A stretch of 64,000 nucleotides of DNA, from positions 2,306 through 66,305 of the forward strand of contig CAWHPS010000047.1 of the NCBI GenBank assembly GCA_963831235.1, read 5' to 3'. Both the position numbers and the translations under genes were made by a program. Positions 11,409 to 48,841 of this stretch are shown in pieces. The stretch is from an uncultured Fibrobacterota bacterium. GTDB taxonomy: Bacteria > Fibrobacterota > OXYB2-FULL-49-7 > JAEUSG01. Below the pieces are notes generated by a model. It made no database searches, was not told where the DNA came from, and was given only the letters and a program-made list of their open reading frames with translations. Position 1 is the stretch's first letter. Each line of letters begins with the position of its first letter.

Positions 11409-11609
11409 CTGCACCGCGAATGTGCCCACGCGTTAAGCTACCGCGGTGTCAGCATTTCCGGCGCCATTACACATTGTGTCTTTTCAGTTAAGTGATCCCA
11501 GGCGCTAGCCTGAATTTTCATCTCTTTTTATTATCACGAGACTTTGTTGCAGCGCCATTAGATTGTTGTCTAATCTGGAAAATGTGAGTGCGTATAAAAA
11601 TTAGGGTAA

Positions 11610-12300: not shown

Positions 12301-12821
12301 CCTCCTGTGTATAACATAATATTATATAGGGAAATGCAACAAGAGAAGCATTAAGCATACTTCTTTCTTTTCTCTAATCCGGCACCGTTACGTATGATGT
12401 TTTTTAGTTACTTTTATCTTAGCGCCAGTCTTTATCTTCTCGTGTGCCAATCCCCTTTCGGCGGTACCAAATTACACGCTTACCTGACCGACATATATTT
12501 TTTCTGCTTTTTCTTCGATTTATTCCGACGCCGCTACGATTTGTGTTTTTTAGTTACGTGATTTTTTTCCGGAATATCTTCTTCATTCTCTTTTTGCTTT
12601 TCCGGCGCCATTACGTTTTGTGCCTTTTTAGTTACGTCTACTTGGCGCCGGTCTTTGTGGTATATTTTAGCAATCGAATACGCATGCCTTTAATCCTGTG
12701 CCGTTACGTTTTGTGCCTTTTTAGTTAAGTTTATCTTGGCACCGGATTTCGTCCTAATCTCTTCATTTCTAGCACCGAATCAATTATGGTTCACTTGTTG
12801 GACTGCCCTGCCATTTTCGGC

Positions 12822-19861: not shown

Positions 19862-19888
19862 ATAGAAGCAGAGAATGTCGTTTGTCGC

Positions 19889-20017
19889 GCCATAACGGCG
19901 GGTTGTGTTGCGCGCGCTGGCGAGCGTCCAGCGAGCTTTTATATCAAAGGCAACAAAATCCATAATTAATATTTGTTGCCCTCTTTGCGCGCGTCAATAC
20001 CAACCCGATAGTTGGGC
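19889..20017 (-). repeat. integron attC site 3
   Basis: GCCATAAC R' box, standard L arms, GTTGGGC R'' box. Confidence 0.8.
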
Positions 20018-20658: not shown

Positions 20659-20900
20659 CTCTATCATCATTTTTATTTAATAAAGCACATTACGCATTGT
20701 GCTTTTCAGTTAAGCGATCCCAGACGCCGGTCTTTGTGGTATATTTTAGCAATCGAATACGCATGCCTTAAATCCGGTGCCGTTACGTTTTGTGCCTTTT
20801 TAGTTAAGTTTATCTTGACACCGGATTTCGTCCCTATCTCTTCATTTCGAACACCGAATCAATTATGGTTCACTTGTTGAACTGCTCTGCTATTTCCGGC

Positions 20901-21917
20901 ACCGGGTGGGTCGGGGGCCTCTCGGCCCCGTTCCCCCCTCAGAACCGTACGTGACAGTTTCCCGTCATACGGCTCAAGCATTCATAAGGCAACACCTTGC
21001 TTTTGTGCCACCCAGACGTAACCTTGTGGCCAACTCGCTTACCATACGGATGGTTATTGCACTTAGCGCGTATAATCCGTACAGCGTGAATCCGGTTACG
21101 GCCTTTGCGATACGCACCAGCAGGCCCTAAGTCGCTGTCGACGGGAGGGGGCCCGATTTGCACATAAGTCGCGTCAGTTTCAGACGCCTTTTTGGTGTCG
21201 CCACCATGCAAACCACCATAGCGTTCCCTCCTGGAAGGGTTCTCCTGATTATCTCGCAGTAGAACACCAGCATAGACCGTCAGCCTCCCATACGGGTGAG
21301 ATAATGTTCCACCGTCGTCAATCGGCGGTCAATCTCTATCTCCCTCATTACAAGAGAGCATTCGCTTCTGTCAGCTTCTCACCCCATACCTCCATCAACC
21401 CACCTTGCGGCCAGTCTGCTCTTCCAGTAGCAAAGAGCGTAGCTATGAGGTTACTTCGTTCCGTGTTTTGACCCATTGGATGCTTTAGGTTTGCGTAGTC
21501 CGCCGGTGGGGCTATTATCCGTGCCGGGACTAGTTGGAGAGTCCCCAGCCACCCACATCCGCCTTGCGACGGACACAGGCCTGTCAATTCCTTTGGCCTG
21601 CTACCTTCGTGACGACGGTTAACCGCATTCAGTTAGTTTAACCATGGCATCCTATTCTATGCCCGACTTTGCCGGAATGGAATTATCCGGAGAGACCCAG
21701 CCTCGCGGCTTGGCCCCTGCACTTTTGAATGTGCTGAGCACTTTGTCCGGGAGGCTTCATACCCACCGTAACAGGATTACGGCACGCATGCTCCCGTAGA
21801 ATCTCGATGACGGAACATCGGGTCTGACAGGTTACCATCATGACGAGTGCGATATTCTCGTCTTATCAGCCAATGGCAGCCTTCAGACAGTCAAAGAACA
21901 CAGTTGACGAATCGCGA
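20901..21917 (-). mobile_element. ORF-less group II intron-like element, copy 3 (1017 nt)
   Basis: No differences from copy 2 were detected. Domain V at 20942-20975. Flanked by the leader ...TTTCCGGC and by attC-4. Confidence 0.7.
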
Positions 21918-22041
21918 GCAACGGCGGGTTGTGTTGCGCGCGCTGCGAGCTTCCAGCGAGCTTTATATTAAAGGCAACAAAATCTATAATCTATTTTTGT
22001 TGCCATCTTTGCGCGCGTCAATACCAACCCGATAGTTGGGG
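21918..22041 (-). repeat. integron attC site 4 (R' split by intron copy 3)
   Basis: GCAACGGCGGGTTGTGTTGCGCGCGC ... GCGCGCGTCAATACCAACCCGATAGTTGGGG. Confidence 0.8.
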
Positions 22042-22376
22042 CTGCACCGCGAATTCGCCCGCGTACCAAGCCTCCGCGGTGTCAGCATTTCCGGCGCATT
22101 ACGTCTTGTGTCTTTTTAGTTAAGTTGATCTTGCGCCGGTCTTTTTTTTATGGACCTGTACCTATTCCAAAGAATCCTGCATTTTGAATCATTTCCTTGG
22201 ACCATCCAAATAAAACAGTCTGTATTGCCGGACTCCTCTGCCAAATTTGGTTTCAAATAGTGTACATAATATCGGGTGCATTCCCGATTTGTTGGTGTTT
22301 TTTAAGCCAAGTATTGACATTGACCCTTTTTTTTAGTATATTTCCGATAGCAATTATAATGCAATCGGAAAGGAGC

Positions 22377-22727
22377 ATGCCCATGTCCGCCAATAAACGT
22401 CCTGTCCAACAGGTTAAGGACGCACTTTATCGACTTGGCCCTTTGTTGCCTGGCAGCATCAGCACCCAATGGAATGTCTGCGGAAAAGCGGGTTGCCGTT
22501 GCAAAGACCCCGAAAAGCCTCGTAAACACGGCCCTTATTACCAGCTCAGCTTTACCGTTGGCGGGAAGAGCTCCTCAATGTTCATTAAGGCCGCCGATAT
22601 ATCCGCTGTACGAGAATGTATAAAGCGCTATAGACAATTCAAAAAACTCAACAACACCCTGTTAAACGCCTATTTGCTATGGGCGCGTAACGGAGGATTA
22701 CAGCAATCAAAGGAGAAAAAGCTATGA
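22377..22727 (+). CDS. IS accessory zinc-ribbon protein (orfA)
   Basis: ATG at 22377 with GGAAAGGAG upstream. WNVCGKAGCRCKDPEKPRKHGPYYQLSF motif. ATGA overlap with the next ORF. Confidence 0.6.
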   Translation: MPMSANKRPVQQVKDALYRLGPLLPGSISTQWNVCGKAGCRCKDPEKPRKHGPYYQLSFTVGGKSSSMFIKAADISAVRECIKRYRQFKKLNNTLLNAYLLWARNGGLQQSKEKKL

Positions 22728-24138
22728 GCGGGAATATGTCTGAACAGGAGAGAGAAGAACTCAAACTTCGCATGATGGAACAAATAGAGGGCTTGTTGAA
22801 CAAGATTGCCGACACCGGCGTCGTACGCAACGCGGAACAATTGCGAAAAGCCGAACTGGAGATTGCCGCAATTACCGATGGAATGGCCGGGGATGTCATC
22901 AAAACTGTCATCAAACACTCTCTGCAAGACCAGTACCTTATTACCCAGGGACAGTTATTGGCAAAGGGGGCTACCGTACGCATGAAAAACCACGGCAAGC
23001 GTGATGTCGTGATACAGCCCTATCGAGGCGATCCTTTTACTGTAGAAACGACCTATTACTACAAGGCGGGGCAGGTTCACCGGCCTGCAGCAAAAAAAAA
23101 GGGTTCTTTCCCGAATTAACACTGCTTGGCGTCCTCGCCCACCATACGCCGGTGGCCGCAAGTGAGATAACGCAATTGGCTACGGCGTTATGCTCACTCA
23201 AGGAAGCCGTTGTGATACTCCAGGAACGAGGACGCAGCATTGATATCAAGACCCTGCGCCGTCTGACCTATCATTTCGCCGATACAGCCCGTTCAGTACA
23301 GCAAACCATCCCCCTCACTCTTTCCAATACCGTTGCGGGCAAACGATGTGCTGTTTCCGTGGATGGTGGACGCATCCGAATTCGTACGCCCAAGCAGGGT
23401 AAAAAGACCTCGAAAAAGCGAAGTCGTTTCAAGGCAGATTGGCGTGAACCCAAACTGCTCCATATCTGGCTTCTGGAGGGTGATGGGACTATCTGTCGTG
23501 ATTTTGCGCCGTGGATTGACGGCACGCTGAATGGTCCCGATGCCGTCTTCATGCTCCTTGGATATTACCTGACAGCACTCAATATCACCAGCGCCGATCA
23601 GGTCCTTTTTATTGCTGACGGAGCACCTTGGATATGGGCCCGGGTTCCGCTGCTCATAAAAGAACTCGGGCTTGACCCGGCAAAGGTCTACCAAATTGTT
23701 GATTTCTATCATGCCGTGGAGCACCTCAACGCCGTGGCAAAGCTGTGCAAGCGTTGGCCGGAAAAACGACGCCGTCAATGGGTAAGCCGCTTAAAGGGTT
23801 ATCTGTGGGTGGGAAAGAATGAGGAGGTTGTGGAGGCAGTACGCGAAATCTCTCGGGGTCGAAATGGCAAACTGATAACGCGTGAAAGAAATTATTTCGA
23901 AGGTAATATTCAGAGAATGCAATACGCATTGGCCCGGAAAAACAATCTCCCCATTGGCAGCGGCCCAATGGAAAGCGCAATCAGGCGAGTGGTGAATCTG
24001 CGCATGAAAGGAAATGGCATCTTTTGGCTGGAACAGAATGCGGAAGCTATGATCATGCTACGCTCATACTACAAAGCGGGACGCTGGAACGATCTCTTTC
24101 TCATGGCAACCACCGCATCGGCAGGAGATCACTCATAA
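22724..24138 (+). CDS. IS transposase in two frames (22724-23119 and 23005-24138), joined by a -1 shift at A9
   Basis: ADGAPWIWARV and VDFYHAVEHLN blocks (UPF0236/ISKra4-like). The A9 tract at 23092-23100 lies in the 115-nt overlap. The -1 product reads ...AAKKKGFFPELTLLGV... Confidence 0.65.
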
Positions 24139-24835
24139 TGTCACCCACAAAACGGGAATGCACCCCATAATATCCAACCCTAAAGCATCGTAACCCAAGA
24201 ATGGCCTCACAGAATCCTCCATCCGCGCTAAACTTGAAATCTTTCCATTTAACCTCTACAATTGACGACACGGCTATTGAGTCTATATTTTCTTGCTCTA
24301 TTTTCCACTTTTCAAAAGTTTGAGGAAAACCAAAGCCTGCAGCACTACCGTCTTTGCTCTTGCATGATATAGATACCTGTGAAAGAATAGAATAAGCATC
24401 TTTATACTTATGCACTGCAATGTTTTGAAAATAATTCCGAATTGTTTGAAAATATATACTGTCAGAAGGATTGCTTTGGATTGAAGCGGCCAAAAACAGG
24501 AGCGCAAGAATCGATTTGGTAATTGTTTTCATTTTGGCCTCTTTTTCTTAAACTCTCGATTTTGTTTTACTTGCGTTGCCTTCCACAAAGGATTTTGTCT
24601 TTATTCCGGCGCCGTTACGATTTGTGCCTTTTCAGTTAAGTTTATCTTGGCGCCGGTTGCATTTCTGGTATTTTTATAGCCCTCGAATACACATGCCTTT
24701 AATCCGGTGCCGTTACGCCAGTTGCTTTTCAGTTACATTTATCTTGGCACCGGATTTCGTCCTCATTTCTTCATTCCACTTAATTGTGCTCTGCACCAAT
24801 TACAGTTCTGCTTGTTGGGCTGCTCCGCTTTTGCC

Positions 24836-24963
24836 GGCACAACGGCGGGTTGTGTTGCGCGCGCCGCGAGCGTCAAGCGAGCTTTCAAATAAAAGGCAAC
24901 AAAGTCTATAATATATTTTTGTTGCCCTCTTTGCGCGCGTCAATACCAACCCGTTAGTTGGGC
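24836..24963 (-). repeat. integron attC site 5
   Basis: GGCACAAC R' box, L arms, GTTGGGC R'' box. Confidence 0.8.
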
Positions 24964-24964
24964 T

Positions 24965-25004
24965 GCACTGCGGTTTGCCACCCTGCTCAGCTTCCCGCAG
25001 TGTC
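24965..25004 (-). repeat. H module: conserved hairpin abutting R'' (representative copy)
   Basis: GCACTGCGG ... CCGCAGTG(T)C stem around a ~21-nt variable loop. A similar hairpin follows most attC sites. Confidence 0.6.
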
Positions 25005-25043
25005 GGCATTTTGGCTATCTATTTGCCTTTCATTTTGCATTTC

Positions 25044-25078
25044 GACGCCGCCCAGCTTGCGTTACCTTCCCGCGAAGG
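25044..25078 (-). repeat. N module (representative copy)
   Basis: GACGCCGCCCAGCTTGCGTTACCTTCCCGCGAAGG with an internal CCTTC/GAAGG mini-hairpin. Recurs singly or in tandem, for example at 40246-40400. Confidence 0.55.
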
Positions 25079-25092
25079 ATTTTGCTTTTCTT

Positions 25093-25142
25093 CCGGCGCC
25101 ATTACGCGTTGTGTTTTTCAGTTAAGTGTTTCAAGGCGCCGG
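25093..25142 (-). repeat. M module, subtype a (representative copy)
   Basis: CCGGCGCC-ATTACGCGTTGTGTTTTTCAGTTAAGTGTTTCAA-GGCGCCGG. An 8-bp stem closes a conserved ~34-nt loop. Confidence 0.65.
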
Positions 25143-25185
25143 TCTTCATGGTATATTTTAGCCCTCGAATAAGTATGCCTTTAAT
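25143..25185. promoter_or_regulatory. P-box: promoter-like spacer between the two M modules
   Basis: The plus strand has TGGTATATT (extended -10 like). The minus strand has TAAAAT (25155-25160) with TTAAAG 18 nt upstream. Confidence 0.35.
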
Positions 25186-25236
25186 CCGGTGCCGTTACGT
25201 TTTGTGCCTTTTTAGTTACGTTTATCTTGGCACCGG
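25186..25236 (-). repeat. M module, subtype b (representative copy)
   Basis: CCGGTGCC-GTTACGTTTTGTGCCTTTTTAGTTACGTTTATCTT-GGCACCGG. The internal GTGCC (25204-25208) can compete with the 5' stem for GGCAC. Confidence 0.65.
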
Positions 25237-25318
25237 ATTTCGTCCTTATCCATTCATTCAACTTAATTGCGCTCTGCGTCAATTACAGTTCTGCTTGTTG
25301 GGCTGCTCTGCTTTTGCC
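25237..25318 (-). repeat. Box A: conserved cassette 5' leader segment adjoining R'
   Basis: Present next to R' in most cassettes, in two sequence variants. Contains a second RYYYAAC/GTTRRRY-like pair and a TAATTG/CAATTA hairpin. Confidence 0.55.
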
Positions 25319-25448
25319 GGCACAACGGCGGGTTGTGTTGCGCGCGCTTTGCGAGCGACAAGCGAGCTTTTATATCAAAGGCAACAAAATCTATAATCAA
25401 TATTTGTTGCCCTCTTTGCGCGCGTCAATACCAACCCGATAGTTGGGC
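25319..25448 (-). repeat. integron attC site 6
   Basis: GGCACAAC ... GTTGGGC with standard L arms. Confidence 0.8.
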
Positions 25449-25802
25449 CTACACCGAGGCTCATTGCAAACACCGAGCTCTCCGACTCTGTCCTTTTTTC
25501 CTTCGACGCCGCCCATCTGTTAACACATTCACATAAGGCGATACTGCATTTCCCTCTATCCTGCAACACTACACTCTTACGTTACATGCTGACAAAGGAT
25601 TTTTATATCTTATTTCAAAACGCACCGCCTCCCTTTCGGCTGTACCAATGTTTACGCTTACCTGACAGAATCGAATCCTTCTAACTTTTCTTCAATATTT
25701 TCCGAAAATATTACGTCTTGTGTTTTTCAGTTATATGATCCAAGCGCCGGATTTAGTCCTTACGTCCCGCTCCGTCCTTGGCTCAAACCGATACTATGGA
25801 GC

Positions 25803-26261
25803 CTATGCATTTCCATTGCAGTTTATTTCAATAAATCTATTGTTTTTTATATCGAAAATTATTCCACAAAAAGAATCTCCTCCATCCATTACCCAAATTG
25901 GTTTCTTTTCCCAATTTTTAAATTCATTATGTTTCGCAATCAAATTGATGTAAACATAGTTTTCGCTACCAATTTTAAATCCGATATATTGCCTTCTGTA
26001 ATATCCAATTCCATTATCATTTATTTTGGCAACTTTAAGTGAATCAAAATATCTCGGTAGAATTGCTTCTATTTTGATACAAATAGAATCAGCCAATTTA
26101 TCAATTTCTATTGATTTTGATTTAAGGAATGAGTGATTTCTTTGATAAATCGCATTCTTACAATCATTTCCTGCTAATACTACAAATTCCTTTTCGTTTT
26201 TAGCGAAGCAATAAAATGCGATAACTGAAGCAAAGATAAAAATGCCTATTTTTGTTTTCAT
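25803..26261 (-). CDS. hypothetical secreted protein (cassette gene)
   Basis: 152-aa ORF with signal peptide MKTKIGIFIFASVIAFYCFA. No recognisable family. Confidence 0.55.
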   Translation of the reverse strand: MKTKIGIFIFASVIAFYCFAKNEKEFVVLAGNDCKNAIYQRNHSFLKSKSIEIDKLADSICIKIEAILPRYFDSLKVAKINDNGIGYYRRQYIGFKIGSENYVYINLIAKHNEFKNWEKKPIWVMDGGDSFCGIIFDIKNNRFIEINCNGNA

Positions 26262-26307
26262 AATTTATTCCTTTTGCTCTCTTATCATTAAACTTAATTG
26301 CGATTCA

Positions 26308-26333
26308 CGTCAATACCAACCCGATAGTTGGGG
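26308..26333 (-). repeat. decayed attC (site 7): only L''/R'' retained, fused to a Box A fragment
   Basis: AACTTAATTGCG (Box A) is followed by CGTCAATACCAACCCGATAGTTGGGG. R' and L' are missing. Confidence 0.6.
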
Positions 26334-26501
26334 CTGCACCGCGGTTTGCCACCCTGCTCAGCTTCCCGCGGTGTCGGCATCTCCGGCGCCTTTACGCTTT
26401 GTGCTTTTTAGTTAAGTTTATCTTGGCGCCGGTCTTCTCTTTTACATTTTGACGTCGCCCAGCTTGCGTTGCCTTCCCGCAATGAAACATCTGCCTTGTG
26501 T

Positions 26502-26921
26502 TCATATAGTCTTTATAAACCTTTTCCTGTATTCCCCATAACCATGGCTTTCGTAAAATTGATGCGCATCTTTTCGACGATAAGCGCTTGTCACTTCAAA
26601 CTTGCAGCAATTCTTTTGTTTTCCCCATTTCTCAACAAATGATAGCAGTTTTGATGCGATTCCCTTTCTTCGATGGCTTTTGCTTACAATTAACGAAGTG
26701 ATTCTACCCGTGCATCCAATTTGATGCATTAATGGCGTAAGGCAAAAACTTATAAAGCCAATGGCTTTTTGTTTTTCTGTAATTACGGCTGCAACTCCTC
26801 TTTTTCCATTATAGTTTAAAAGGTTCTTTTTAATGTCGTTGGATGAGATATTATAACCTAGTTCATACATCAATTGCGAAATGTCTTTTGAAAAAGAAAT
26901 AGGATTCTGAATTATCTTCAT
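26502..26921 (-). CDS. GNAT-family N-acetyltransferase (cassette gene)
   Basis: RITSLIVSKSHRRKGIASKLLSFVEKW acetyl-CoA binding motif, plus AHQFYESHGY. Confidence 0.75.
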   Translation of the reverse strand: MKIIQNPISFSKDISQLMYELGYNISSNDIKKNLLNYNGKRGVAAVITEKQKAIGFISFCLTPLMHQIGCTGRITSLIVSKSHRRKGIASKLLSFVEKWGKQKNCCKFEVTSAYRRKDAHQFYESHGYGEYRKRFIKTI

Positions 26922-27310
26922 TATGTTTTCCTTTCTACTATTGTTGAAATAGCAGTTTCTTTCGAACCAAGTAATGTGCTTTTCTTCTGTCTTTTGACGT
27001 CGACCAGCTTACGTTACCTTTCCACAAGGCGACATTGTTTTCTTTTTATATTTCTTACGTTGCCTTCGACAAAGGATTTTGTCTTTTTTCCGAATTCATT
27101 ACACCTTGTGCATTTTCAGTTAAGTGATCTTATATCTGCATTTCTGGTATTTTCATAGCCCGCGAATACGCATGCCTTAAATCCGGCGCATTACGTATTG
27201 TGCTTTTCAGTTACGTGATCCCAGCGCCGGATTTCGTGATCCCTCCTCATTAAACTTAATTGTGCTCTGCATCAATTATGGTTCACTTGTTGAGCTGCTC
27301 TGCCATTTCA

Positions 27311-27438
27311 GGCCCAACGGCGGGTTGTGTTGCGCGCGCTGCGAGCGTCCAGCGAGCTTTTATATCAAAGGCAACAAAATCCATGATCAATATTTGTTGC
27401 CCTCTTTGCGCGCGTCAATACCAACCCGATAGTTGGGG
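27311..27438 (-). repeat. integron attC site 8
   Basis: GGCCCAAC ... GTTGGGG. Confidence 0.8.
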
Positions 27439-27510
27439 CTGCACCGCTGCCTTGCCCCACGCCTAGCCTCCTGCGGTGTCGGCACTTGTTTATATTCATT
27501 TCTTAAATAG

Positions 27511-28605
27511 CTACTTATAAAAAGGAGTTACACCATAATATACTTTTCCATGGTCTTTATCTTTAGGTGCAGCAATTTTAAATTCTTCCCAAACATTTTT
27601 CAAAGGGAACGCTAGTACGGCCAGGCTACCTTCCTCATTCCATACAGTTGTGCTCCAACCACCACTAAGTCCGTCAAGCATAAACTGAGGCTCCTCCATT
27701 TTTGTCAGACATTTTGATATAAGATGCTTTAACGAATCGACATTACCATAATTTGTCCTAATAAGTTCATAAGTATAAAAGATTTCGCCTAAAACTACTT
27801 TTGAACAAAAGTGTGTTCCAAATTGTTTTTGAAAAACAGCCGAGTCTTTTTGTAGTGAATCTGCACATGACGAGAAAGGCGCTAGCTCTTTTATTAAATA
27901 TTCTTTATCACGATAAACCATATAGGTGAAATACAAGATTTCACCCGGTTGCCTTTTGATGGTTTGATCTAACATAGAATATAAATCAAATCTGTTTTGT
28001 GAAAACTTAATTGCCGCAGCCTCATCTGAATCATTTGCAATTATAACGTAGCCATATTCAAATTTATTTATTATTACGCTCTGGCATACGCCTCCTTTTC
28101 CAAATGGAGATAAACATTCACCTGAACCAACATAATAATAAATACTATTTAAAATAGTTGAATCAAAAGAGAAGTATAATCCATAATTACGTGCAAGAGA
28201 GTCTGAACAGATTTCATACACAGGCGGCAGAATAGTAGCTTTCCAGAATAGCATTAAATTATTCGAATTTGTTATCTCGAATGGAAGCTGCAATTTACCA
28301 TACATTCTATAGTAACCTGGCATCAATGGAATTGAAATTGAATCCCATATAACAGGTACCAATGAAGTAGAGTTGTTATCAAAAAGCACCTTCACTTCAC
28401 CTGGAAGCTGATAACTTTCACCGTATGTAAGCGTAATAGATGTATCCGTAGCAACGTTTTGTACTTCTACTATACTCTTGGCAGAAGGCATAATGCTTTG
28501 ACCGGTTGGATTATTTTGATTTTTTGTACAAGAAAACACAAATAATACAACAAGCAAACAAATAAGTCTTCCGGCCAATTCATTTTTTGCTGATTCTAAT
28601 AACAT
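27511..28605 (-). CDS. hypothetical lipoprotein (cassette gene)
   Basis: 364-aa ORF with a lipobox-like LFVFSC near the N-terminus. No recognisable family. Confidence 0.55.
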   Translation of the reverse strand: MLLESAKNELAGRLICLLVVLFVFSCTKNQNNPTGQSIMPSAKSIVEVQNVATDTSITLTYGESYQLPGEVKVLFDNNSTSLVPVIWDSISIPLMPGYYRMYGKLQLPFEITNSNNLMLFWKATILPPVYEICSDSLARNYGLYFSFDSTILNSIYYYVGSGECLSPFGKGGVCQSVIINKFEYGYVIIANDSDEAAAIKFSQNRFDLYSMLDQTIKRQPGEILYFTYMVYRDKEYLIKELAPFSSCADSLQKDSAVFQKQFGTHFCSKVVLGEIFYTYELIRTNYGNVDSLKHLISKCLTKMEEPQFMLDGLSGGWSTTVWNEEGSLAVLAFPLKNVWEEFKIAAPKDKDHGKVYYGVTPFYK

Positions 28606-28715: not shown

Positions 28716-28845
28716 CATCCAACGGCGGGTTGTGTTGCGCGCGCCTTGCTCGCGTCAAGCGAGCTTTTATATAAAAGGCAACAAAGTCCATAATCAATAT
28801 TTGTTGCCATCTTTGCGCGCGTCAATACCAACCCGATAGTTGGGC
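28716..28845 (-). repeat. integron attC site 9
   Basis: CATCCAAC ... GTTGGGC. Identical to attC-16 apart from the part of the R' box lying beyond the crossover (CATCCAA versus GGCCCAA). Confidence 0.8.
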
Positions 28846-29283
28846 CTACACCGAGGCTCATTGCAAACACCCACCTCTCCGGCAATGTACTTTTTTACTT
28901 CGACGCCGCCATTCTGTTAACACATCCACATAAGGCGACACCACAATTCCAGACATCCTGCAACACCGCTTACTTTTACACGGTGAAGCTCATTTACTCA
29001 CAAGAGAATTTCATTATTTTATCCGCACTTTCAACCCACTGAGCTGTTCTTCCAAATACCTTCAACTCAATCTTTAGCACTCTATCAGTTTCAGTTCAGC
29101 AAATTGGCATACATTTGCGTTTCTGGTATATTTTAGCAATCGAAGAAGCATGCCTTTAATCCGGTGCCGTTACGACGAGTGTTTTTCAGTTACGTTTATC
29201 TTGGCACCGGATTTCGTCCCAATCTCTTCATTCCGAACACCGAATCAATTATGGTTCATTTGTTGGACTGCTCCGCTTTTTCC

Positions 29284-29411
29284 GGCCCAACGGCGGGTTG
29301 TATTGCGCGCGCTGCGAGCGTCCAGCGAGCTTTTATATTAAAGGCAACAAAATCCATGATCAATATTTGTTGCCCTCTTTGCGCGCGTCAATACCAACCC
29401 GATAGTTGGGC
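29284..29411 (-). repeat. integron attC site 10
   Basis: GGCCCAAC ... GTTGGGC. Confidence 0.8.
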
Positions 29412-29736
29412 TCACACCGAGGCTCATTCTCACCACCAAGCTTTCCAGCAATCTTTACGCTTTGTGCTTTTTAGTTAAGTGATCTTTTTCCGGAATAATT
29501 TCTTCATTATCTTTTGCTTACGTTGTCTACTTACAAAGGATTTTGTCTTTTTCCGAATTCATTACACCTTGTGCATTTTTAGTTAAGTGATCTTAATATC
29601 TGCATTTCTGGTATTTTCATAGCCCGCGAATACGCATGCCTTAAATCCGGCGCATTACGTATTGTGCTTTTCAGTTACGTAATCCCAGCGCCGGATTTCG
29701 TGATCCCTCCTCATTAAACTTAATTGTGCTATTTTA

Positions 29737-30226: not shown

Positions 30227-30489
30227 TCTAAAAAAAGTCGCATTATTTTTCCTCCTTTTTGATTTTCCGGCACCATTACGAATTGTGCTTTTTAGTTACG
30301 TCTACTTGGCGCCGGTCTTTGTGGTATATTTTAGCAATCGAAGACGCATGCCTTAAATCCGGTGCCGTTACGACGGGTGTTTTTCAGTTACGTTTATCTT
30401 GGCACCGGATTTCGTCCTTATCTCTTCATTCCACTTAATTGTGCTCTGCATCAATTACAGTACGCAAGTTGGGCGGCAGTGCCATGTCC

Positions 30490-30617
30490 GGCCCAACGGC
30501 GGGTTGTGTTGCGCGCGCTGCTCGCATCAAGCGAGCATTCAAATAAAAGGCAACAAAGTCCATAATATAAATTTGTTGCCCTCTTTGCGCGCGTCAATAC
30601 CAACCCGATAGTTGGGC
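30490..30617 (-). repeat. integron attC site 11
   Basis: GGCCCAAC ... GTTGGGC. Confidence 0.8.
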
Positions 30618-31130
30618 TTACACCGAGGCTCATGTCCACCACCAAGCTCTCCGGCAACGTCAGCTTTTTTCTTTCTACGCTGCCAATATTTTGACACACT
30701 CTCACAAGACCACACCAAATTTCCAGTTATCCTGCAACACCGAACTCTTACGTTACCTTCCAGCAGAGTTTTTTATCTAACATTCCCCAGCACACCAACT
30801 CCCTTTCAGCGGCACCAAGACACTTGTTCCGCTTACCTTTAGGCAGTGCAGCCCATTTACGAACCAGCGCCTTTCATTTCTTTTTTGTCGCACTTTCAGA
30901 CCACAGCGCCACTTTTCCAAACCTCTTCAACTCAGCCTCTACAATCCATCAGCTTTAGTTCCGCCAATTGGACTGCTCTTTTTTATCAATTGTCAAGAAC
31001 CTTATTCTGTTTATTTTGTCAGCAACACATCTGCGAGTTGAATGGCAATTCTTCTTCAAGCAATTAATTCGGCTCAATTTATTTCCTACCAGCCACGCTT
31101 CCGATAGTTGGATTTTACTTCTTAGTTATT

Positions 31131-31261
31131 TGCCCAACGGCGGGTTGTGTTGCGCGCGCTTTGCGAGCGACAAGCGAGCAATCTATTATAAAGGCAACAA
31201 AATCCATAATCAATTTTTGTTGCCATCTTTGCGCGCGTCAATACCAACCCGATAGTTGGGA
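31131..31261 (-). repeat. integron attC site 12
   Basis: TGCCCAAC ... GTTGGGA. Confidence 0.75.
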
Positions 31262-32345: not shown

Positions 32346-32556
32346 ACATTGCTCCTGATTTCTTATTGACTTCTCTTCTGATTCCCGTGTCTTGCGTTAG
32401 CTTCCCACAAAGGATTTTGCCTTTAATCCGGCGCATTACGTGTCGTGTTTTTCAGTTACGTGATCCCAGCGCCGGATTTCGTCCTTATTCCTTCATTAAA
32501 CTTAATTGTGCTCTGCATTAATTACAGTTCTCTTGTTGGGCTGCACTTATTTTCCC

Positions 32557-32684
32557 GGCCCAACGGCGGGTTGTGTTGCGCGCGCCTGCGAGCGTCCAGC
32601 GAGCTTTCAAATCAAAGGCAACAAAATCTATAATCTATTTTTGTTGCCCTCCCAGCGCGCGTCAATACCAACCCGTAGTTGGGG
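32557..32684 (-). repeat. integron attC site 13
   Basis: GGCCCAAC ... GTTGGGG. Confidence 0.8.
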
Positions 32685-33980: not shown

Positions 33981-34271
33981 TTAATTTCCTTTTTTTGTGA
34001 ATTGTTTTCTTCTGCTTTTCGACTCCGCCCAGCTTTCGTTACCTACTCACGAAGGTGACATTGTTTTCTCTTTATCTTTCAATTCTGTTTTACTTGCGTT
34101 GCCTGCCCACAAAGGATTTTGCCTTTTATCCGGCGCCATTAAAATTAGTGCCTTTTTAGTTAAGATGATCTTGCGCCGGATTCCGCATCTCTTTCATCTT
34201 CCATTAAGCTTAATTGTGCGGTTCATACCGCATCAATTACAGTGCGCAAGTTGGGCGGCGCTGCATCGTCC

Positions 34272-34399
34272 GGCCCAACGACGGGTTGTGTTGCGCGCGC
34301 CGCGAGCGTCAAGCGAGCTTTCAAATAAAAGGCAACAAAGTCTATAATCAATATTTGTTGCCCTCTTTGCGCGCGTCAATACCAACCCGATAGTTGGGG
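34272..34399 (-). repeat. integron attC site 15
   Basis: GGCCCAAC ... GTTGGGG. Identical to attC-22 apart from the part of the R' box lying beyond the crossover (GGCCCAA versus GGCACAA). Confidence 0.8.
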
Positions 34400-34578
34400 C
34401 TGCACCGCGAATATGCCCACGCGTTAAGCTACCGCGGTGTCAGCATCTCCGGCGCCATTACACGTTGTGCCTTTTTAGTTAAGTTTATCTTGGCGCCGGT
34501 CTTTTCTTCTTTCTTTTGATGCTGCCAAGCTCGCGTTGCCGTCCTTCAAGGCTTCTACAAAAACTTGCCTTTACATCT

Positions 34579-35055
34579 TTATTGATATTTAACATCATTA
34601 AAGATAATCCAACCATTTTCATGCACATTATTTGGGTCATGGTGGGTCCAGTGCATTAATCCGCCCTGATCATTCCAAACGTAATCACCATGAACGTAGA
34701 CAAGGGAACCGATTTGAATCCCAGCTACACGAGGTGCAATGTCAATATTGTGTTCGATCAATAAAGTTTGTTGGTTGGATAGTTGAATAATAAAGCGTTG
34801 GTGATTTTCTCCTATAGTATCATCGTTTAGAATGCGAATTATGGCTCCTTTTACGGTAACATTTAAATTACTGTCTTGATTGGCAAATGCTGCTTCAATT
34901 ACAGAAATAGGTGTTAGACTAGAATCCAATGGAATATTAGTTTGAGCAGCAGTATTGGTGATTTCTTTGGGACTTTGCAATGAGCAACCATTTATACCCA
35001 CAATAAAATAAAATAGCAAAAGGGCTACGCATTGACTGATTGCTTTTTTATGCAT
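34579..35055 (-). CDS. DUF3465-like lipoprotein (cassette gene, copy 1)
   Basis: Lipobox GINGCS. ENHQRFIIQLSNQQTLLIEHNIDIAPRV and GGLMHWTHHDP motifs. Confidence 0.6.
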   Translation of the reverse strand: MHKKAISQCVALLLFYFIVGINGCSLQSPKEITNTAAQTNIPLDSSLTPISVIEAAFANQDSNLNVTVKGAIIRILNDDTIGENHQRFIIQLSNQQTLLIEHNIDIAPRVAGIQIGSLVYVHGDYVWNDQGGLMHWTHHDPNNVHENGWIIFNDVKYQ

Positions 35056-35337
35056 TTTAATCTGCTTTGCTTACGTTGCCTACCCAGAAAAGATTTTGTC
35101 TTTAATCCGGCGCCGTTACGATTTGTGCCTTTTCAGTTAAGCCTATCTTGGCGCCGGTCTGATTTCCTGGTATTTTCATAGCCCGCGAATACGTCTGCCT
35201 TTAAATCTGGTGCCATTACGACGGGTGTTTTTCAGTTACGTTTATCTTGGCACCGGATTTCGTCCTCATTTCTTCATTACACTTAATTGTGCTCCGCATC
35301 AATTACAGTGCGCGAGTTGGGCGGCGCTGCATCGTCC

Positions 35338-35467
35338 GGCCCAACGGCGGGTTGTGTTGCGCGCGCCTTGCTCGCGTCAAGCGAGCTTTTATATAAAAGG
35401 CAACAAAGTCCATAATCAATATTTGTTGCCATCTTTGCGCGCGTCAATACCAACCCGATAGTTGGGC
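35338..35467 (-). repeat. integron attC site 16
   Basis: GGCCCAAC ... GTTGGGC. Confidence 0.8.
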
Positions 35468-35905
35468 CTACACCGAGGCTCATTGCAAACACCCACCTCT
35501 CCGGCAATGTACTTTTTTACTTCGACGCCGCCATTCTGTTAACACATCCACATAAGGCGACACCACAATTCCAGACATCCTGCAACACCGCTTACTTTTA
35601 CACGGTGAAGCTCATTTACTCACAAGAGAATTTCATTATTTTATCCGCACTTTCAACCCACTGAGCTGTTCTTCCAAATACCTTCAACTCAATCTTTAGC
35701 ACTCTATCAGTTTCAGTTCAGCAAATTGGCATACATTTGCGTTTCTGGTATATTTTAGCAATCGAAGAAGCATGCCTTTAATCCGGTGCCGTTACGACGA
35801 GTGTTTTTCAGTTACGTTTATCTTGGCACCGGATTTCGTCCCAATCTCTTCATTCCGAACACCGAATCAATTATGGTTCATTTGTTGGACTGCTCCGCTT
35901 TTTCC

Positions 35906-36036
35906 GGCCCAACGGCGGGTTGTGTTGCGCGCGCTTTGCGAGCGATAAGCGAGCAATCATATTTAAAGGCAACAAAATCTATAATCAATTATTGTTGCCC
36001 TCTTTGCGCGCGTCAATACCAACCCGATAGTTGGGG
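35906..36036 (-). repeat. integron attC site 17
   Basis: GGCCCAAC ... GTTGGGG. Confidence 0.8.
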
Positions 36037-36233
36037 CTGCACCGCGAATGTGCCGACTTTCGAAGCTACCGCGGTGTCAGCATTTTCTGGCGCCATTACG
36101 ACGGGTGTCTTTTTAGTTACGTTTATCTTGGCGCCGGTCTTCTTCATATTGCTGATTACTGTTCTTTTCTTCTGGTTCTCTTTTCTTTATTCCAGCGCCA
36201 TTGCATCGGTAGAATATTTATTATAATCAAATA

Positions 36234-37547: not shown

Positions 37548-37972
37548 ATTACCTCCACAATAAAATGTTGATTGTCTCTCAAAATGGTTTTAGCCACCCC
37601 ACAGTGAGTGTGTGGCTTGGTTTCTGCATTTTGGCCCCACAAGACCACATCGTATTTTAATCCGGTGCCGTTACGACAGGTGTCTTTTCAGTTACGTTTA
37701 TCTTTGGCACCGGATTTCCCTTTTATTTCTTTTCTTAAATCCGGCGCAATTACGTTTATTCCCTTAGTAACGCAAGTGACGCGCCGGTCTTTGTGGTATT
37801 TTATAGCCCTCGAATACGTCTGCCTTTAAATCCGGCGCCGTTAGAGAGGGTGCTTTTCAGTTACATTTATCTTGGCACCGGATTTCGTTCTTCATCTCTC
37901 CAGTCAAGCTTAATTGCGCGGTCCGTAACTGCGTCAATTAAAGTTCGCAAGTTGGGCGGCAGTGCCATGTCC

Positions 37973-38100: not shown

Positions 38101-38455
38101 TGCACTGCGGTTTGCCACCCTGCTCAGCTTCCCGCAGTGTCGGCATTTTGGCTATCTATTTGCCTTTCATTTTGCATTTCGACGCCGCCCAGCTTGCGTT
38201 ACCTTCCCGCGAAGGATTTTGCTTTTCTTCCGGCGCCATTACGTGTTGTGCTTTTCAGTTAAGTGTTTCAAGGCGCCGGTCTTCATGGTATATTTTAGCA
38301 ATCGAAGAAGCATGCCTTAAATCCGGTGCCGTTACGTTTTGTGCCTTTTTAGTTAAGTTTATCTTGGCACCGGATTTCGTCCTTATTTCTCCATTCAACT
38401 TAATTGCGCTCCGCGTCAATTACAGTTCTGCTTGTTGGGCTGCTCCGCTTTTGCC

Positions 38456-40165: not shown

Positions 40166-40641
40166 TGCACTGCGGTTTGCCACCCTGCTCAGCTTCCCGC
40201 AGTGTCGGCATTTTGGCTATCTATTTGCCTTTTTTTTTTGCATTTTGACGCCGCCCAGCTTACGTTACCTACCCACAAGGCGACATTGCATTTTTCTTTT
40301 GCATTTCGACACCGCCCAGCTTACGTTACCTACCCACAAGGTGACATTGCTTTTTCTTCATCTTTCGATTCTGTTTTACTTACGTTACCTTCCCGCGAAG
40401 GATTTTGCTTTTCTTCCGGCGCCATTACGCGTTGTGCTTTTCAGTTAAGTGTTTCAAGGCGCCGGTCTTCATGGTATATTTTAGCAATCGAATAAGTATG
40501 CCTTTAATCCGGTGCCGTTACGTTTTGTGCCTTTTTAGTTACGTTTATCTTGGCACCGGATTTCGTCCTTATATCTCAATTCCGCTTAATTGCGCTCCGC
40601 GTCAATTACAGTTCTGCTTGTTGGGCTGCTCTGCTTTTGCC

Positions 40642-40769: not shown

Positions 40770-40948
40770 CTGCACCGCGAATATGCCCACGCGTTAAGCT
40801 ACCGCGGTGTCAGCATCTCCGGCGCCATTACACGTTGTGCCTTTTTAGTTAAGTTTATCTTGGCGCCGGTCTTTTCTTCTTTCTTTTGATGCTGCCAAGC
40901 TCGCGTTGCCGTCCTTCAAGGCTTCTACACAAACTTGCCTTTACATCT

Positions 40949-41425: not shown

Positions 41426-41707
41426 TTTAATCTGCTTTGCTTACGTTGCCTACCCAGAAAAGATTTTGTCTTTAATCCGGCGCCGTTACGATTTGTGCCT
41501 TTTCAGTTAAGCCTATCTTGGCGCCGGTCTGATTTCCTGGTATTTTCATAGCCCGCGAATACGTCTGCCTTTAAATCTGGTGCCATTACGACGGGTGTTT
41601 TTCAGTTACGTTTATCTTGGCACCGGATTTCGTCCTCATTTCTTCATTACACTTAATTGTGCTCCGCATCAATTACAGTGCGCGAGTTGGGCGGCGCTGC
41701 ATCGTCC

Positions 41708-41836: not shown

Positions 41837-42016
41837 CTGCACCGCGAATGTGCCCACGCGTTAAGCTACCGCGGTGTCAGCATTTTCCGGCGACATTACG
41901 TCTTGTGTCTTTATAGTTAAGTCTATCTTGCGCCGGTCTTTTCCGTTAATCTCATTTTACATTTATCTCTTTGCCATTTACTCTCTTGGACATCCTTTAA
42001 AAGATGAATATTACCT

Positions 42017-44733: not shown

Positions 44734-44932
44734 ACTTCCTCCCGTTTGGAATTTCGATTTTGTTTTGCTTGCTTTATCTTCTACAAAGGATAGTGTCTTT
44801 TATCCGGCGCCATTACGTCTTGTACTTTCAGTTAAGTGATCCTGGCGCCGGATTTCGTCCAGATCTCTTCATTACACTTAATTGTGCATCGCATCAATTA
44901 CAGTGCGCAAGTTGGGCGGCGCTGCATCGTCC

Positions 44933-45060: not shown

Positions 45061-45415
45061 TGCACTGCGGTTTGCCACCCTGCTCAGCTTCCCGCAGTGT
45101 CGGCATTTTGGCTATCTATTTGCCTTTCATTTTGCATTTCGACGCCGCCCAGCTTGCGTTACCTTCCCGCGAAGGATTTTGCTTTTCTTCCGGCGCCATT
45201 ACGCGTTGTGTTTTTCAGTTAAGTGTTTCAAGGCGCCGGTCTTCATGGTATATTTTAGCCCTCGAATAAGTATGCCTTTAATCCGGTGCCGTTACGTTTT
45301 GTGCCTTTTTAGTTACGTTTATCTTGGCACCGGATTTCGTCCTTATCCATTCATTCAACTTAATTGCGCTCTGCGTCAATTACAGTTCTGCTTGTTGGGC
45401 TGCTCTGCTTTTGCC

Positions 45416-45542: not shown

Positions 45543-46089
45543 CTACACCGAGGCTCATTGCAAACACCATGCTCTCCGGCAATGTCCTTTTTTCCTTCGA
45601 CGCCGCCCATCTGTTAACTCATCTACATAAGGCGACACTGCATTTCCCTCTATCCTGCAACACTACACTCTTACGTTACCTGCAGACAGAGGATTTTTAT
45701 CTCATATTTCAAAACGCACCGCCTCCCTTTCGGCGGTACCAAAGTTTACGCTTACCTGACGAAACCGAATCTATCTAACATTTTCTTCGATATTTTCCGA
45801 AAATATTACGTTTCGTGTTTTTTAGTTACGTGATCTTTTTCCGAAATATCTTCTTCATTCTCTTTTTGCTTTTCCGGCGCCATTACGTTTTGTGCCTTTT
45901 TAGTTACGTCTACTTGGCGCCGGTCTTTGTGGTATATTTTAGCGATCGAAGACGCATGCCTTAAATCCGGTGCCGTTACGACGAGTGTTTTTCAGTTACG
46001 TTTATCTTGGCACCGGATTTCGTCCTTATCTCTTCATTCCGAACACCGAATCAATTATGGTTCACTTGTTGGACTGCTCTGCTTTTCCC

Positions 46090-47080: not shown

Positions 47081-47393
47081 CAGGACTCTCCTTCTTTGAT
47101 TAAGTATGTGGCTTTTTATTTCTATACGATTTTTATGCTTTTCTTATGTTGATTTTTACCAATTCTTTTTTAAATTCCGACGCCGTTACGCATTGTGTTT
47201 TTTAGTTACGTGATCCGAGGCGCCGGTCTTTGTGGTATATTTTAGCCATCGAATACGCATGCCTTAAATCCGGTGCCGTTACGTTTTGTGCCTTTTTAGT
47301 TAAGTTTATCTTGGCGCCGGATTTCGTCCCAATCTCTTCATTCCGAACACCAAATCAATTATGGTTCACTTGTTGGACTGCTCCGCTATTTCC

Positions 47394-47437
47394 GGCACAA
47401 CGGCCAATTGGAATTGATCTAATCAATTCCAATTGGC
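47394..47437 (-). other. attI recombination site (R'-type box plus 16-bp perfect palindrome)
   Basis: GGCACAAC (47394-47401) marks the point where cassette-leader homology ends. It is followed by GCCAATTGGAATTGAT-cta-ATCAATTCCAATTGGC (47403-47437), about 100 nt upstream of intI. Confidence 0.65.
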
Positions 47438-47536
47438 AGAATATTCTATAAATTTTCGGGATAAATTATGCAGTTTTTATAATCTAATCCCATATAAAGG
47501 CACTTATACAGATCAACTTTAATTAAAGGGGTATTT

Positions 47537-48841
47537 ATGCAAATCAAAGAACAGATTCTTGTTCAATACGATCAATTCCTTGAAAAAGAAGGAATTCATC
47601 AAACCAATCGCCCCTTTTTCAGATATTGGCTAGCCCACTACTTGGATATTTGTCAGCGCCACAATACAAAACCTGACAATTATGGGAGCATTAACCCATT
47701 TATTCAAAGTTTGATAAAAATGGGGACGCCCCAATTTCAAGTTACCCAAGCACAGAAAGCTGCCGAATGGTATTGTAAAAACGCCTCGTGTCTTACGAAC
47801 ACTGATTATAAATTAAATAATCTAGAAGCACATAAGTCAAGTGAAAAAGCTAATGATTTTGATACTACTTTTAAGACAACAAACAAATGGGAGGAAGCAC
47901 TTAATCTTTTAAAGCAATCCATTAAGATAAGGCATTATTCAGGACGCACACTTGAAATCTATACTTACTGGACTCAAAAACTGGGGCGTTTTGCAAAAAA
48001 GGCCGACCCTTTTGAGCTTGTTTCAGATGATGCTCAGCAATATTTGACTTGGCTCGCTATGGAGAAAAAAGTAAGCAGTGCCACGCAAAACCAGGCGTTC
48101 AACGCGCTCCTTTTCTTTTACAAGAACGTATTAAAAAAGGAATATAAGATACTGTCAACCACTCCACGAGGAAAGACAACTCAAAATGCGCCTAATGTCC
48201 TGTCCCGCGAAGAAGTTCAACGACTATTTAGCAAGATGATCTATCCATACAAACTCGTTGCACAACTGATGTATGGTTGCGGTCTAAGATTGAGTGAGGT
48301 GTCAACAATAAGGGTCAAAGATATTGACTTTGATCAAAAAAAGTTGTGTGTGCGCAAAGGTAAAGGTAGAAAAGACAGAATACTTCCACTCCCCGAAAAA
48401 ATACTGGATGAGCTCAAAGCTCACATGAAAAGAGTCATGACACTATATGAATTTGACCTCAAGGAAGGATTTGATGGCGTATTCATGCCTGAAGAGTCTG
48501 AAGCAAAATTCAAGGGGAGAGCCCGCGATATTGCCTGGTACTGGTTTTTTCCGGCAAAAGGACTTACTAATCTCAAAGACAGCAATGAAATTAGACGCTA
48601 TCATCTACATGAAACAAATATTTACACAGCAATCAGGGAGGCTGCTAATTTAAGCTGCATCACCAAGCGCGTATCTCCGCATACATTACGCCACAGTTTT
48701 GCAACACATCTTCTACGGGCTGGACATGATATTCGGACGCTTCAGGAACTGCTGGGGCACAGTGATGTCCGTACCACAATGATCTATACACATACCCTGG
48801 AGAGTGATCCAAAACCTCTTAAAAGCCCCTTGGATATGTGA
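47537..48841 (+). CDS. intI: integron integrase IntI (tyrosine recombinase) with an N-terminal extension
   Basis: HTLRHSFATHLLRAGHDIRTLQELLGHSDVRTTMIYTH catalytic region. The IntI-specific insertion EAKFKGRARDIAWYWFFPA is comparable to [20 protein letters not shown] of IntI1. Adjacent to attI and the attC array. Confidence 0.9.
   Translation: MQIKEQILVQYDQFLEKEGIHQTNRPFFRYWLAHYLDICQRHNTKPDNYGSINPFIQSLIKMGTPQFQVTQAQKAAEWYCKNASCLTNTDYKLNNLEAHKSSEKANDFDTTFKTTNKWEEALNLLKQSIKIRHYSGRTLEIYTYWTQKLGRFAKKADPFELVSDDAQQYLTWLAMEKKVSSATQNQAFNALLFFYKNVLKKEYKILSTTPRGKTTQNAPNVLSREEVQRLFSKMIYPYKLVAQLMYGCGLRLSEVSTIRVKDIDFDQKKLCVRKGKGRKDRILPLPEKILDELKAHMKRVMTLYEFDLKEGFDGVFMPEESEAKFKGRARDIAWYWFFPAKGLTNLKDSNEIRRYHLHETNIYTAIREAANLSCITKRVSPHTLRHSFATHLLRAGHDIRTLQELLGHSDVRTTMIYTHTLESDPKPLKSPLDM

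Follow-up and report, generated by a model that had tools for sequence, protein, structure and literature searches.

A recurrent hairpin with a conserved loop carried by the cassettes of a sedentary chromosomal integron from an uncultured Fibrobacterota bacterium

Integron cassettes are usually described as sharing the attC site only. On the attI side, accessory sequences are known: the attI1 site carries DR1 and DR2 (GTTACGC and GTTATGG), direct repeats that bind IntI1 besides the core site. Here, we analyse a 64,000-nucleotide stretch of an uncultured Fibrobacterota bacterium (contig CAWHPS010000047.1, positions 2,306 to 66,305; hereafter the window), in which a hairpin of about 50 nt, closed by an 8-bp G+C stem and called M below, is repeated many times. 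A first-pass annotation, made from the letters alone, had singled out the copy at 25186-25236 (+ strand), which reads CCGGTGCCGTTACGTTTTGTGCCTTTTTAGTTACGTTTATCTTGGCACCGG, and had described M as accompanying another element, the P-box. The region is a sedentary chromosomal integron with its cassette array and the P-box is its attC site, a context that this annotation had missed. M is a real, structured and lineage-restricted repeat without a described family, within this known type of system. No cassette-borne accessory repeat of this kind was found in the databases and literature that we searched.

A selected hairpin exclusive to the cassette array

The window contains 25 matches to the strict stem pattern CCGGYGCC-N30-45-GGCRCCGG, always on the + strand, and 100 shuffled sequences contain none. 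The loop core TTACR-N4-5-GTG-N1-3-TTTTYAGTTAMG outnumbers the full-stem copies, with 39 occurrences for 0 expected. A covariance model (R1), built from 51 distinct copies of the window and of metagenomic contigs and scanned without filters (matches of at least 30 bits), detects 48 copies on the + strand: 40 intact ones (at least 55 bits) and 8 degenerate ones scoring below, while an nhmmer profile search finds 50. The hand count of 45-50 copies made earlier was right, as were the consensus and the distinction of two subtypes (C..G versus T..A at stem position 5). On the - strand, the covariance scan of the window recovers only the reverse of these loci and no independent M, and beyond 11453-47325 its scores do not rise above noise. 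The density of M is therefore 48 copies in 36 kb of array and 0 in 27 kb of non-array DNA, all of them direct repeats. Several + strand open reading frames (ORFs) cross M; a coding role is ruled out since the copies differ by 1-nt indels. No relation of M to tRNA or tmRNA was found, and Rfam gives no match to M at its gathering score, nor at E<=1 over 24500-27500.

The alignment of the 51 copies reveals compensatory changes in the stem, and M is a genuine hairpin family, as had been proposed. Watson-Crick pairs fill 377 of the 398 stem cells (95%). At pair 17-61, 33 copies have C-G and 16 have T-A, the two exceptions looking chimeric, and the covariation score of this pair (0.117) is reached by none of 500 shuffles (0.067 +/- 0.007). 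When the stem partners are slid out of register, pairing falls from 84% to 20-43%. Furthermore, RNAalifold independently predicts the terminal stem only, and in a 7-bp variant of this stem one C and its partner G are missing together. Some loops of the window are kept under unrelated stems, namely GATATTT/AAATATC at 45792 and TATTCCG/CGGAATA at 12520. This supports the view that the stem probably need only pair.

The loop (TTAC..GTG..TTTTYAGTTA) is as informative as the stem and far better conserved than the flanks. The outcome that would have refuted the first-pass annotation, stem changes without compensation and a loop conserved no better than its surroundings, is thus not what the copies show. 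The loop holds 10 of the 14 invariant columns of the alignment, the invariant parts being TTA, T33, TTT and AGTTA; variation is free at the four positions separating TTACG from GTG, and in the flanks. It contains two boxes, TTAC/TTAA, directly repeated with a spacing of 20-21 nt. The predicted fold, as DNA or RNA and on either strand, consists of the terminal stem and a largely open loop, with -10 to -14 kcal/mol and z-scores of -2.2 to -5.4 for DNA and z-scores of -3.4 to -5.6 for RNA. The wobble asymmetry of the stem (4 G.T versus 9 A.C cells) is too slight to call the strand. The search for a conserved module on the same strand that would be complementary to the loop, as a kissing or pseudoknot partner, returned only an inconsistent 8-mer match to the R' box of attC. 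Taken together, these data demonstrate that selection acts on the M hairpin, whose loop is constrained in sequence, and that M has a fixed polarity and is exclusive to the integron.

Outside this array, the loop-core pattern has 17 single matches in 185,579 GTDB representatives; none of them has flanking stem arms and they look like chance. There are 0 loop-core matches in viral contigs, and no plasmid matches a whole ORF-less cassette. By contrast, five short contigs from metagenome Ga0172379 carry M and are 80-96% identical to the window array, all of them with attC. A more divergent metagenomic contig, L077, consists of an attC, a - strand ORF, three to four M, a leader and another attC. 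Its spacers are too divergent to be aligned with their window counterparts, yet its M loop is conserved, under stems CCGGCGCC, CCGGCACC/GGTGCCGG, CCGCCGCC/GGCGGCGG and CCAGCGCC, which add compensatory variants to those of the window. This contig has an 88-nt segment in common, at 92% identity, with contig L018, which encodes an integrase 57% identical to that of the window. Therefore, M has been maintained in at least two integron lineages. The contigs of the closest integrase relatives end 250-450 bp upstream of intI, L018 being the informative one. A Scalindua integron, with an integrase of the same long type (46% identical), has no M-like repeat family. In a related population, one copy of M carries in its loop a miniature inverted-repeat transposable element (MITE) of about 190 bp (contig L072, ~326-514, - strand view), with an 8-bp target duplication CTTTTTAG and terminal inverted repeats GGGTGnAGnTCnnATATTACGCAA.

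The integron and the place of M in its cassettes

The intI gene (47537..48841, + strand) encodes a 434-aa integron integrase that scores 359 bits with TIGR02249 (cut-off 265) and matches the Pfam domains Phage_int_SAM_4 and Phage_integrase. Its nearest relative among about 5.8 billion proteins is 57% identical. To the left of this IntI-type tyrosine recombinase gene and its attI lie about 24 co-oriented imperfect palindromes of about 125 nt, the P-boxes; the cassette ORFs occupy the - strand and are read away from intI. Folded as single-stranded DNA, the P-box displays an attC-like succession of R box, unpaired spacer, L box, long stem and variable tip. In the attC next to the M at 25186 (25321..25447, + strand), the boxes read on the + (bottom) strand are R' GCACAAC, L' CGGGTTG, L'' CAACCCG and R'' GTTGGGC. 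The other attC sites are at 11283-11407, 13839-13965, 19886-20016, 21919-22040, 24838-24962, 27313-27437, 28720-28844, 29286-29410, 30492-30616, 31133-31260, 32559-32683, 34274-34398, 35340-35466, 35908-36035, 37975-38099, 38458-38582, 38997-39120, ~40040-40164, 40644-40768, 41710-41835, 44935-45059, 45418-45541 and 46092-46216. The cargo is typical of integrons: HepT and PIN toxins, a GNAT acetyltransferase, DUF3465 and DUF1572/DinB proteins and secreted proteins, one of which has a type IX secretion tail. The Rho protein shares 86% identity with a protein of Candidatus Raymondbacteria and about 72% with proteins of Fibrobacterota/Chitinivibrionia, and the host is of the Fibrobacterota/Raymondbacteria type.

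Two kinds of breakpoint, the attI junction and the limits of a duplicated cassette, lie in one and the same box and map the crossover between CAA and C of GC(A/C)CAAC on the + strand. Therefore, the + strand is the bottom (cleaved) strand of attC and the layout is canonical. At the junction of the first cassette with attI (47368..47440, + strand), similarity to attC flanks ends between GGCACAAC and GGCC. The duplication is a 1.36-kb stretch (34120-35475 and 40499-41844, 95.7% identical) that comprises a whole cassette encoding a DUF3465 protein and took its three M along; at the attC sites bounding it, the shared sequence begins or ends at or near the R' box. Past the attI junction, right at the crossover point, lies a perfect 35-bp palindrome, GCCAATTGGAATTGATCTAATCAATTCCAATTGGC (47405-47439), and L018 has an analogous inverted repeat with AATTGGAAGTGA arms; the palindrome could be a hairpin-type attI or an operator. 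The integrase also has a conserved, helical N-terminal extension of about 120 aa (residues 1-120; 47537-47900) without any match in Pfam. We considered this extension as an M-specific arm-binding domain and rejected it, as it is common to a large clade of 430-480-aa integrases including those of Scalindua, whose integron lacks M, Desulfocicer and many metagenomic proteins.

M is borne by the cassettes, confined to the array and placed relative to attC rather than to the ORF. Read in cassette sense (- strand), a typical cassette starts with the crossover box GTTGKGCC, with the crossover after its first G, followed by 16 nt, a GCCCAAC box, a hairpin named hpB and the attC-proximal copy M(b), then by a spacer of about 43 nt, the copy M(a), 38-165 nt and the ORF. 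It sometimes carries another M after the ORF and ends with a small hairpin and attC. Cassettes have 0 to 4 M overall, those with M at the 5' end having one to four there. The end of M(b) lies at 76, 83-85 or 94-95 nt from the R' box and the frequent 3'-type M begins about 51 nt beyond R'', whereas the distance from M to the start codon is variable. Polarity never changes: all the 48 copies of the window and all 28 metagenomic ones lie on the attC bottom strand. The pairs of M that the first-pass annotation had seen on both sides of the P-box are in fact found as tandem pairs on one side only, the cassette 5' end; the single copies that it had also noticed do exist, on the other side, between ORF and attC.

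All intact copies lie on the + strand. The M at 25186..25236 is an attC-proximal b type scoring 82.6 bits, with a stem extending to ATCCGGTGCC/GGCACCGGAT, and has a tandem partner of a type at 25093..25142 in the same ORF-less cassette. Both the stem pattern and the covariance scan retrieve other a-type copies at 12602..12651, 24606..24656, 35107..35157, 38230..38279, 40416..40465, 45190..45239 (these last three in ORF-less cassettes), 41477..41527 (duplicated cassette) and 45874..45923; the covariance scan adds 30267..30315 and 47177..47226, the latter in the first cassette, beside attI. For the b type, both methods retrieve 24704..24753, 30359..30408, 45967..46016, the copies of ORF-less cassettes at 38323..38373, 40509..40559 and 45283..45333, those of one-M ORF-less cassettes at 29161..29210 and 35783..35832, and the copy with a T.G wobble in its stem at 47270..47320, also in the first cassette; the covariance scan adds 12695..12745, 20774..20824, 35207..35256 and 41577..41626 (duplicated cassette). 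Other copies occupy the b position: 44804..44851 and 37832..37881, the latter with a chimeric stem and a C..A mismatch (both methods), 34130..34179 and the 7-bp stem variants at 27183..27230 and 32428..32475 (covariance scan). The 3'-type copies are at 26383..26432, 34449..34499 and 40819..40869 (duplicated cassette) by both methods, at 36087..36137, 41887..41936 and 22091..22139 (a 7-bp stem variant) by the covariance scan, and at 11458..11508, a single copy located 51 nt after R''. The remaining ones are at 37662..37713 (both methods), 12379..12428 and 29647..29694, a 7-bp stem variant (covariance scan).

The degenerate copies, also on the + strand and all detected by the covariance scan, have decayed in different ways. 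Two have a kept loop under the other stems given above (12520..12577 with TATTCCG/CGGAATA and 45792..45849 with the AT-rich GATATTT/AAATATC), one has lost its 5' arm (20677..20735), one is degenerate or chimeric, with a variant 5' arm and a standard 3' arm (25697..25755) and one has kept the stem with a diverged loop (37736..37792). Three others, which the loop-core pattern also retrieves, have the loop core only (27085..27144, 29450..29490 and 29548..29607).

M is the repeated unit of a hairpin-rich backbone of 150-250 nt that most cassettes share. The 5' leader, from M(b) to the crossover box (25237..25320, + strand), holds hpB (TTAATTGCGC..GCGTCAATTA) and a GTTGGGC box, and all 19 cassettes with the conserved leader also have M(b). 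The hairpin hpB (TTAATTGYGC..GCRTCAATTA; 25270-25294 and homologous positions in the window, 118-147 in L077) has a fully compensated pair, T-A in 7 copies and C-G in 4, and a loop of variable size; a second type of leader (CCGAACACCGAATCAATTATGG) lacks it. The GTTGGGC box lies 16 nt to the left of every R' box (e.g. 25298-25327), upstream on the bottom strand, and can pair with the R' crossover box GC(A/C)CAAC to form another hairpin, hpA (86% paired), which has a 51-nt insert in L018 and L077. The R' box could thus pair either with this neighbour or with the true R'', and the arrangement resembles genuine alternative pairing at the site of recombination. Since hpA re-uses the R' crossover box, the backbone is tied to the recombination site.

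About one third of the cassettes are ORF-less, most of them being the non-coding backbone alone. At least seven of these carry M (~24963-25320, 28845-29285, 35467-35907, 38100-38457, 40165-40643, 45060-45417 and 45542-46091) and two do not (30617-31132 and 38583-38996). Four are near-identical, with two M each, and ORF-less cassettes are found in tandem on metagenomic contigs L023 and L041. Backbone-only cassettes have multiplied in the array. Both internal ORF cassettes that lack the leader (27511-28605 and 39221-39922) are directly downstream of an ORF-less M cassette.

Promoter-like and terminator-like motifs are also present in and around the backbone. The conserved M(a)-M(b) spacer (25143..25185, + strand) contains TGGTATATTTTAGC, and the conserved TGGTATATTTTAGCA provides an extended -10-like motif on both strands that is absent from L077. 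The attC centre (e.g. 24880-24925) carries promoter-like TTGACG-17/18-AATATT boxes in cassette sense, the TTGACG box being kept in the L077 attC too, and TTCAAA-17-TATAAT in antisense. A scan for promoter-like sites gives 89 sites versus 53 +/- 9 in shuffles, a modest enrichment. A sigma-54 or Bacteroidetes-type promoter inside M was rejected by eye, spacing or key bases being unsuitable. At 25062-25092, 38202-38229, 40388-40415, 45162-45189 and comparable positions, M(a) is immediately preceded by a small hairpin, CCTTCCCGCGAAGG, with ATTTTGCTTTTCTT behind it, which resembles a terminator when read on the + strand only. The array contains 31 terminator-like sites, 30 of which belong to the + strand, the one richer in T, and T-rich tails on this strand occur mainly after 3'-type M.

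Other mobile elements have invaded the array. Three group II introns with Rfam D1-D4 and D5-D6 matches lie on the - strand (~7693-11282, ~12825-13838 and ~20904-21918), two of them being copies of about 1.0 kb without ORF. All are inserted at the R' box of attC (GTTGT/), in the orientation of cassette ORFs, i.e. on the attC top strand; IIC-attC introns have been described as antisense, on the bottom strand, at TTGT/T of R'' (PMC7923331). The cassette that follows the leftmost intron (7640-7690, - strand) has no leader and no M, and a palindrome upstream of its start codon, TGTACATTTTGTACAAATGTACA, looks like a toxin-antitoxin operator. Insertion sequences are found at and inside the array (1881-7048, 15983-17116, 17411-19861 and 22197-24138), including two tandem Mutator/IS256-like copies, an IS4-type DDE transposase and an ISKra4-family element, along with a GH36/melibiase-like gene located on the opposite strand between two attC sites.

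Candidate roles of M

We slightly and tentatively favour the reading in which M is a single-stranded hairpin with a protein-recognised loop that would assist attC in cassette recombination. This role is favoured because M is placed by attC on both sides, with an adjoining hairpin that re-uses the crossover box, because backbone-only cassettes have multiplied, and because features common to unrelated cassettes usually serve cassette propagation. M would work as a folded single-stranded nucleic acid: when the bottom strand is single-stranded, M hairpins would fold alongside attC, together with hpA and hpB. As cis accessory elements of recombination, they may keep the sequences flanking attC in a set conformation and offer their loops for binding by IntI or by a host factor, with a modulated readiness of cassette excision or insertion as the outcome. 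Judging from its conservation, the unstructured 34-nt loop, with its two TTAC boxes and its T-run, would be the part read by the protein. It is also conceivable, though doubtful, that M, hpA and hpB form an extended single-stranded recombination site that tunes attC folding and IntI action. If so, they would be the first accessory 'arm-like' elements known for integron cassettes, ORF-less M cassettes would be hyper-mobile 'empty' cassettes or a template for gene capture, and the finding would bear on how cassettes are made.

Several points weigh against a role of M in recombination. Binding of the loop by IntI or by another protein is hypothesised, and the TTAC boxes differ from the IntI boxes of this integron (GTTGGGC and GTTGTGC). 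Five or six cassettes have a good attC with neither leader nor M; therefore, M is not required for cassette existence. To our knowledge, no accessory site of attC has been described in the integron literature. The high similarity of M copies could partly result from recent duplication or gene conversion and not from selection on each copy. Moreover, these hairpins would form in RNA as well, promoter-like boxes are found within attC and in the spacer separating two M copies, and gene-less cassettes act as promoters in Vibrio and Treponema (PMC11014356, PMC6557892).

M could act in RNA, as a leader or insulator at or near the 5' end of cassette mRNAs or of antisense RNAs of the + strand, which we consider almost as probable as the role in recombination. 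Transcripts would start from promoters in attC or in the M(a)-M(b) spacer, where the TTGACG/AATATT and TTCAAA/TATAAT boxes and TGGTATATTTTAGCA lie, and would be stabilised, terminated or insulated by M; alternatively, its loop would bind a global RNA-binding regulator. The ORF-less M cassettes would be promoter or expression cassettes for the next gene. This would agree with the location of M 38-165 nt upstream of start codons, the stable RNA folds (z-scores down to -5.6), the T-runs on the + strand after 3'-type M and the two internal leaderless ORF cassettes that directly follow an ORF-less M cassette. Most tested gene-less Vibrio cassettes (PMC11014356) and ORF-less Treponema cassettes from oral metagenomes (PMC6557892) are promoter-active. 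However, the position of M follows attC and not the ORF, the -10-like motif of the spacer is not kept in L077, tandem ORF-less cassettes are hard to square with promoters, and the enrichment in the promoter scan is modest. Intrinsic terminators are also a poor match, with a loop of 3-8 nt expected against 34 nt in M, and no U-run on the sense strand.

A selfish element related to repetitive extragenic palindromes (REP) or MITEs, moved by its own enzyme (e.g. of HUH/RAYT type, specific for the hairpin and a TTAC site) or by gene conversion and without any role in the integron, would account for a short palindromic repeat present in many copies, 0 to 4 per cassette, some of them decayed or chimeric. 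TTAC is also the target tetranucleotide of IS608-type transposases. We regard this origin as improbable, since M is strictly in one orientation and in the array only, at a fixed distance from attC; its 8-bp arms could pass as terminal inverted repeats of a MITE, but no target-site duplication flanks its ends and the scanned ORFs of the window include no HUH or RAYT gene. Furthermore, loop and stem are conserved in two lineages with 57%-identical IntI while spacers have diverged. Even less probable is a double-stranded DNA operator, in which a regulator bound to the two direct TTAC boxes, and maybe to inverted repeats, would silence cassette promoters. The spacing of the boxes (20-21 nt, i.e. 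two helical turns), the invariant loop positions and the two M copies bracketing a -10-like element fit this idea, whereas compensatory stem changes and the replacement of whole stems with the loop kept are unexpected for a duplex site, and no candidate regulator was found. The suggestion that the GGCGCC/CCGG palindromes of the stem are binding sites is likewise weakened, as some copies keep the loop under other stems, such as CCGCCGCC/GGCGGCGG and CCGGCACC/GGTGCCGG in L077 and GATATTT/AAATATC at 45792. The riboswitch or attenuator put forward by the first-pass annotation, in which GGCAC would pair with either the 5' stem arm or an internal GTGCC, is hardly credible. This helix is pair-compatible in 94.9% of scorable cells, but it has 3-5 bp, mostly with a G.T wobble, and a gap column in 32 of 51 copies. 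It does not covary (97 of 500 shuffles reach its score) and is absent from all minimum-free-energy and consensus folds. Besides, the loop is otherwise unstructured, Rfam gives no match even at E<=1, and some M copies are located 3' of ORFs or in cassettes without any ORF.

If M does assist recombination, it would add a novel level of regulation of cassette movement, exerted on single-stranded DNA, and would hint at where cassettes come from. If its role is in RNA, M would serve as a portable device for expression or insulation by which a long array could be expressed cassette by cassette. In either case, M is a defined and synthesisable element that can be tested with its cognate integrase, from a poorly known phylum.

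M compared with known systems

The ssoA and ssi sites of rolling-circle plasmids and phages are orientation-specific hairpins of single-stranded DNA with conserved loops read by host enzymes. The likeness of M to these sites is one of analogy only, with no similarity in sequence and no replicon context, and we know of no need for complementary-strand synthesis of cassettes. The REP elements and their mosaic arrangements (BIME), BOX, Correia and ERIC sequences are, like M, short multicopy palindromes with G+C stems that are located between genes and may affect mRNAs. However, they are genome-wide, in both orientations and with variable loops, whereas M is found in the array only, in one orientation, at a fixed distance from attC and with an invariant loop. 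M was rejected as a REP/BIME element: in the 64 kb of genome examined, its copies are all direct, without the genome-wide pattern of inverted pairs.

The gene-less cassettes of Vibrio and Treponema resemble those of this array, where about one third of the cassettes lack an ORF and promoter-like motifs occur. The abstracts of these studies describe promoter activity and no structured repeat common to such cassettes and to ORF-bearing ones (PMC11014356, PMC6557892); here, the motifs are consensus-like. As for DR1 and DR2 of attI1, they have in common with the boxes of M a GTTAC-containing direct repeat beside the core recombination site of an integron. They lie in attI as duplex DNA without a closing stem, whereas the boxes of M lie in the loop of a hairpin carried by cassettes. 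The resemblance is in motif only: the TTAC boxes are unlike the R and L boxes of this integron (GTTGG/GTTGT), and its own attI has no DR1/DR2-like boxes.

M can also be compared with attC itself, including the VCR sequences of Vibrio cholerae. Both are repeated, co-oriented imperfect palindromes located between cassettes, specific to a lineage, restricted to the array and expected to fold as single-stranded DNA. M was rejected as an attC site, as its GTTAC/GTTAA motifs occur only in direct orientation, without an AAC partner, and its stem is a plain 8-bp G+C clamp; it was also rejected as a crossover site, since the attI junction and the duplicated-cassette boundaries fall in the R' box of the P-box and not in M. 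Unlike attC, M has no inverted RYYYAAC/GTTRRRY core pair, no R and L boxes and no crossover; it has a large conserved loop in place of the long bulged stem of attC, and is present in 0 to 4 copies per cassette besides the true attC.

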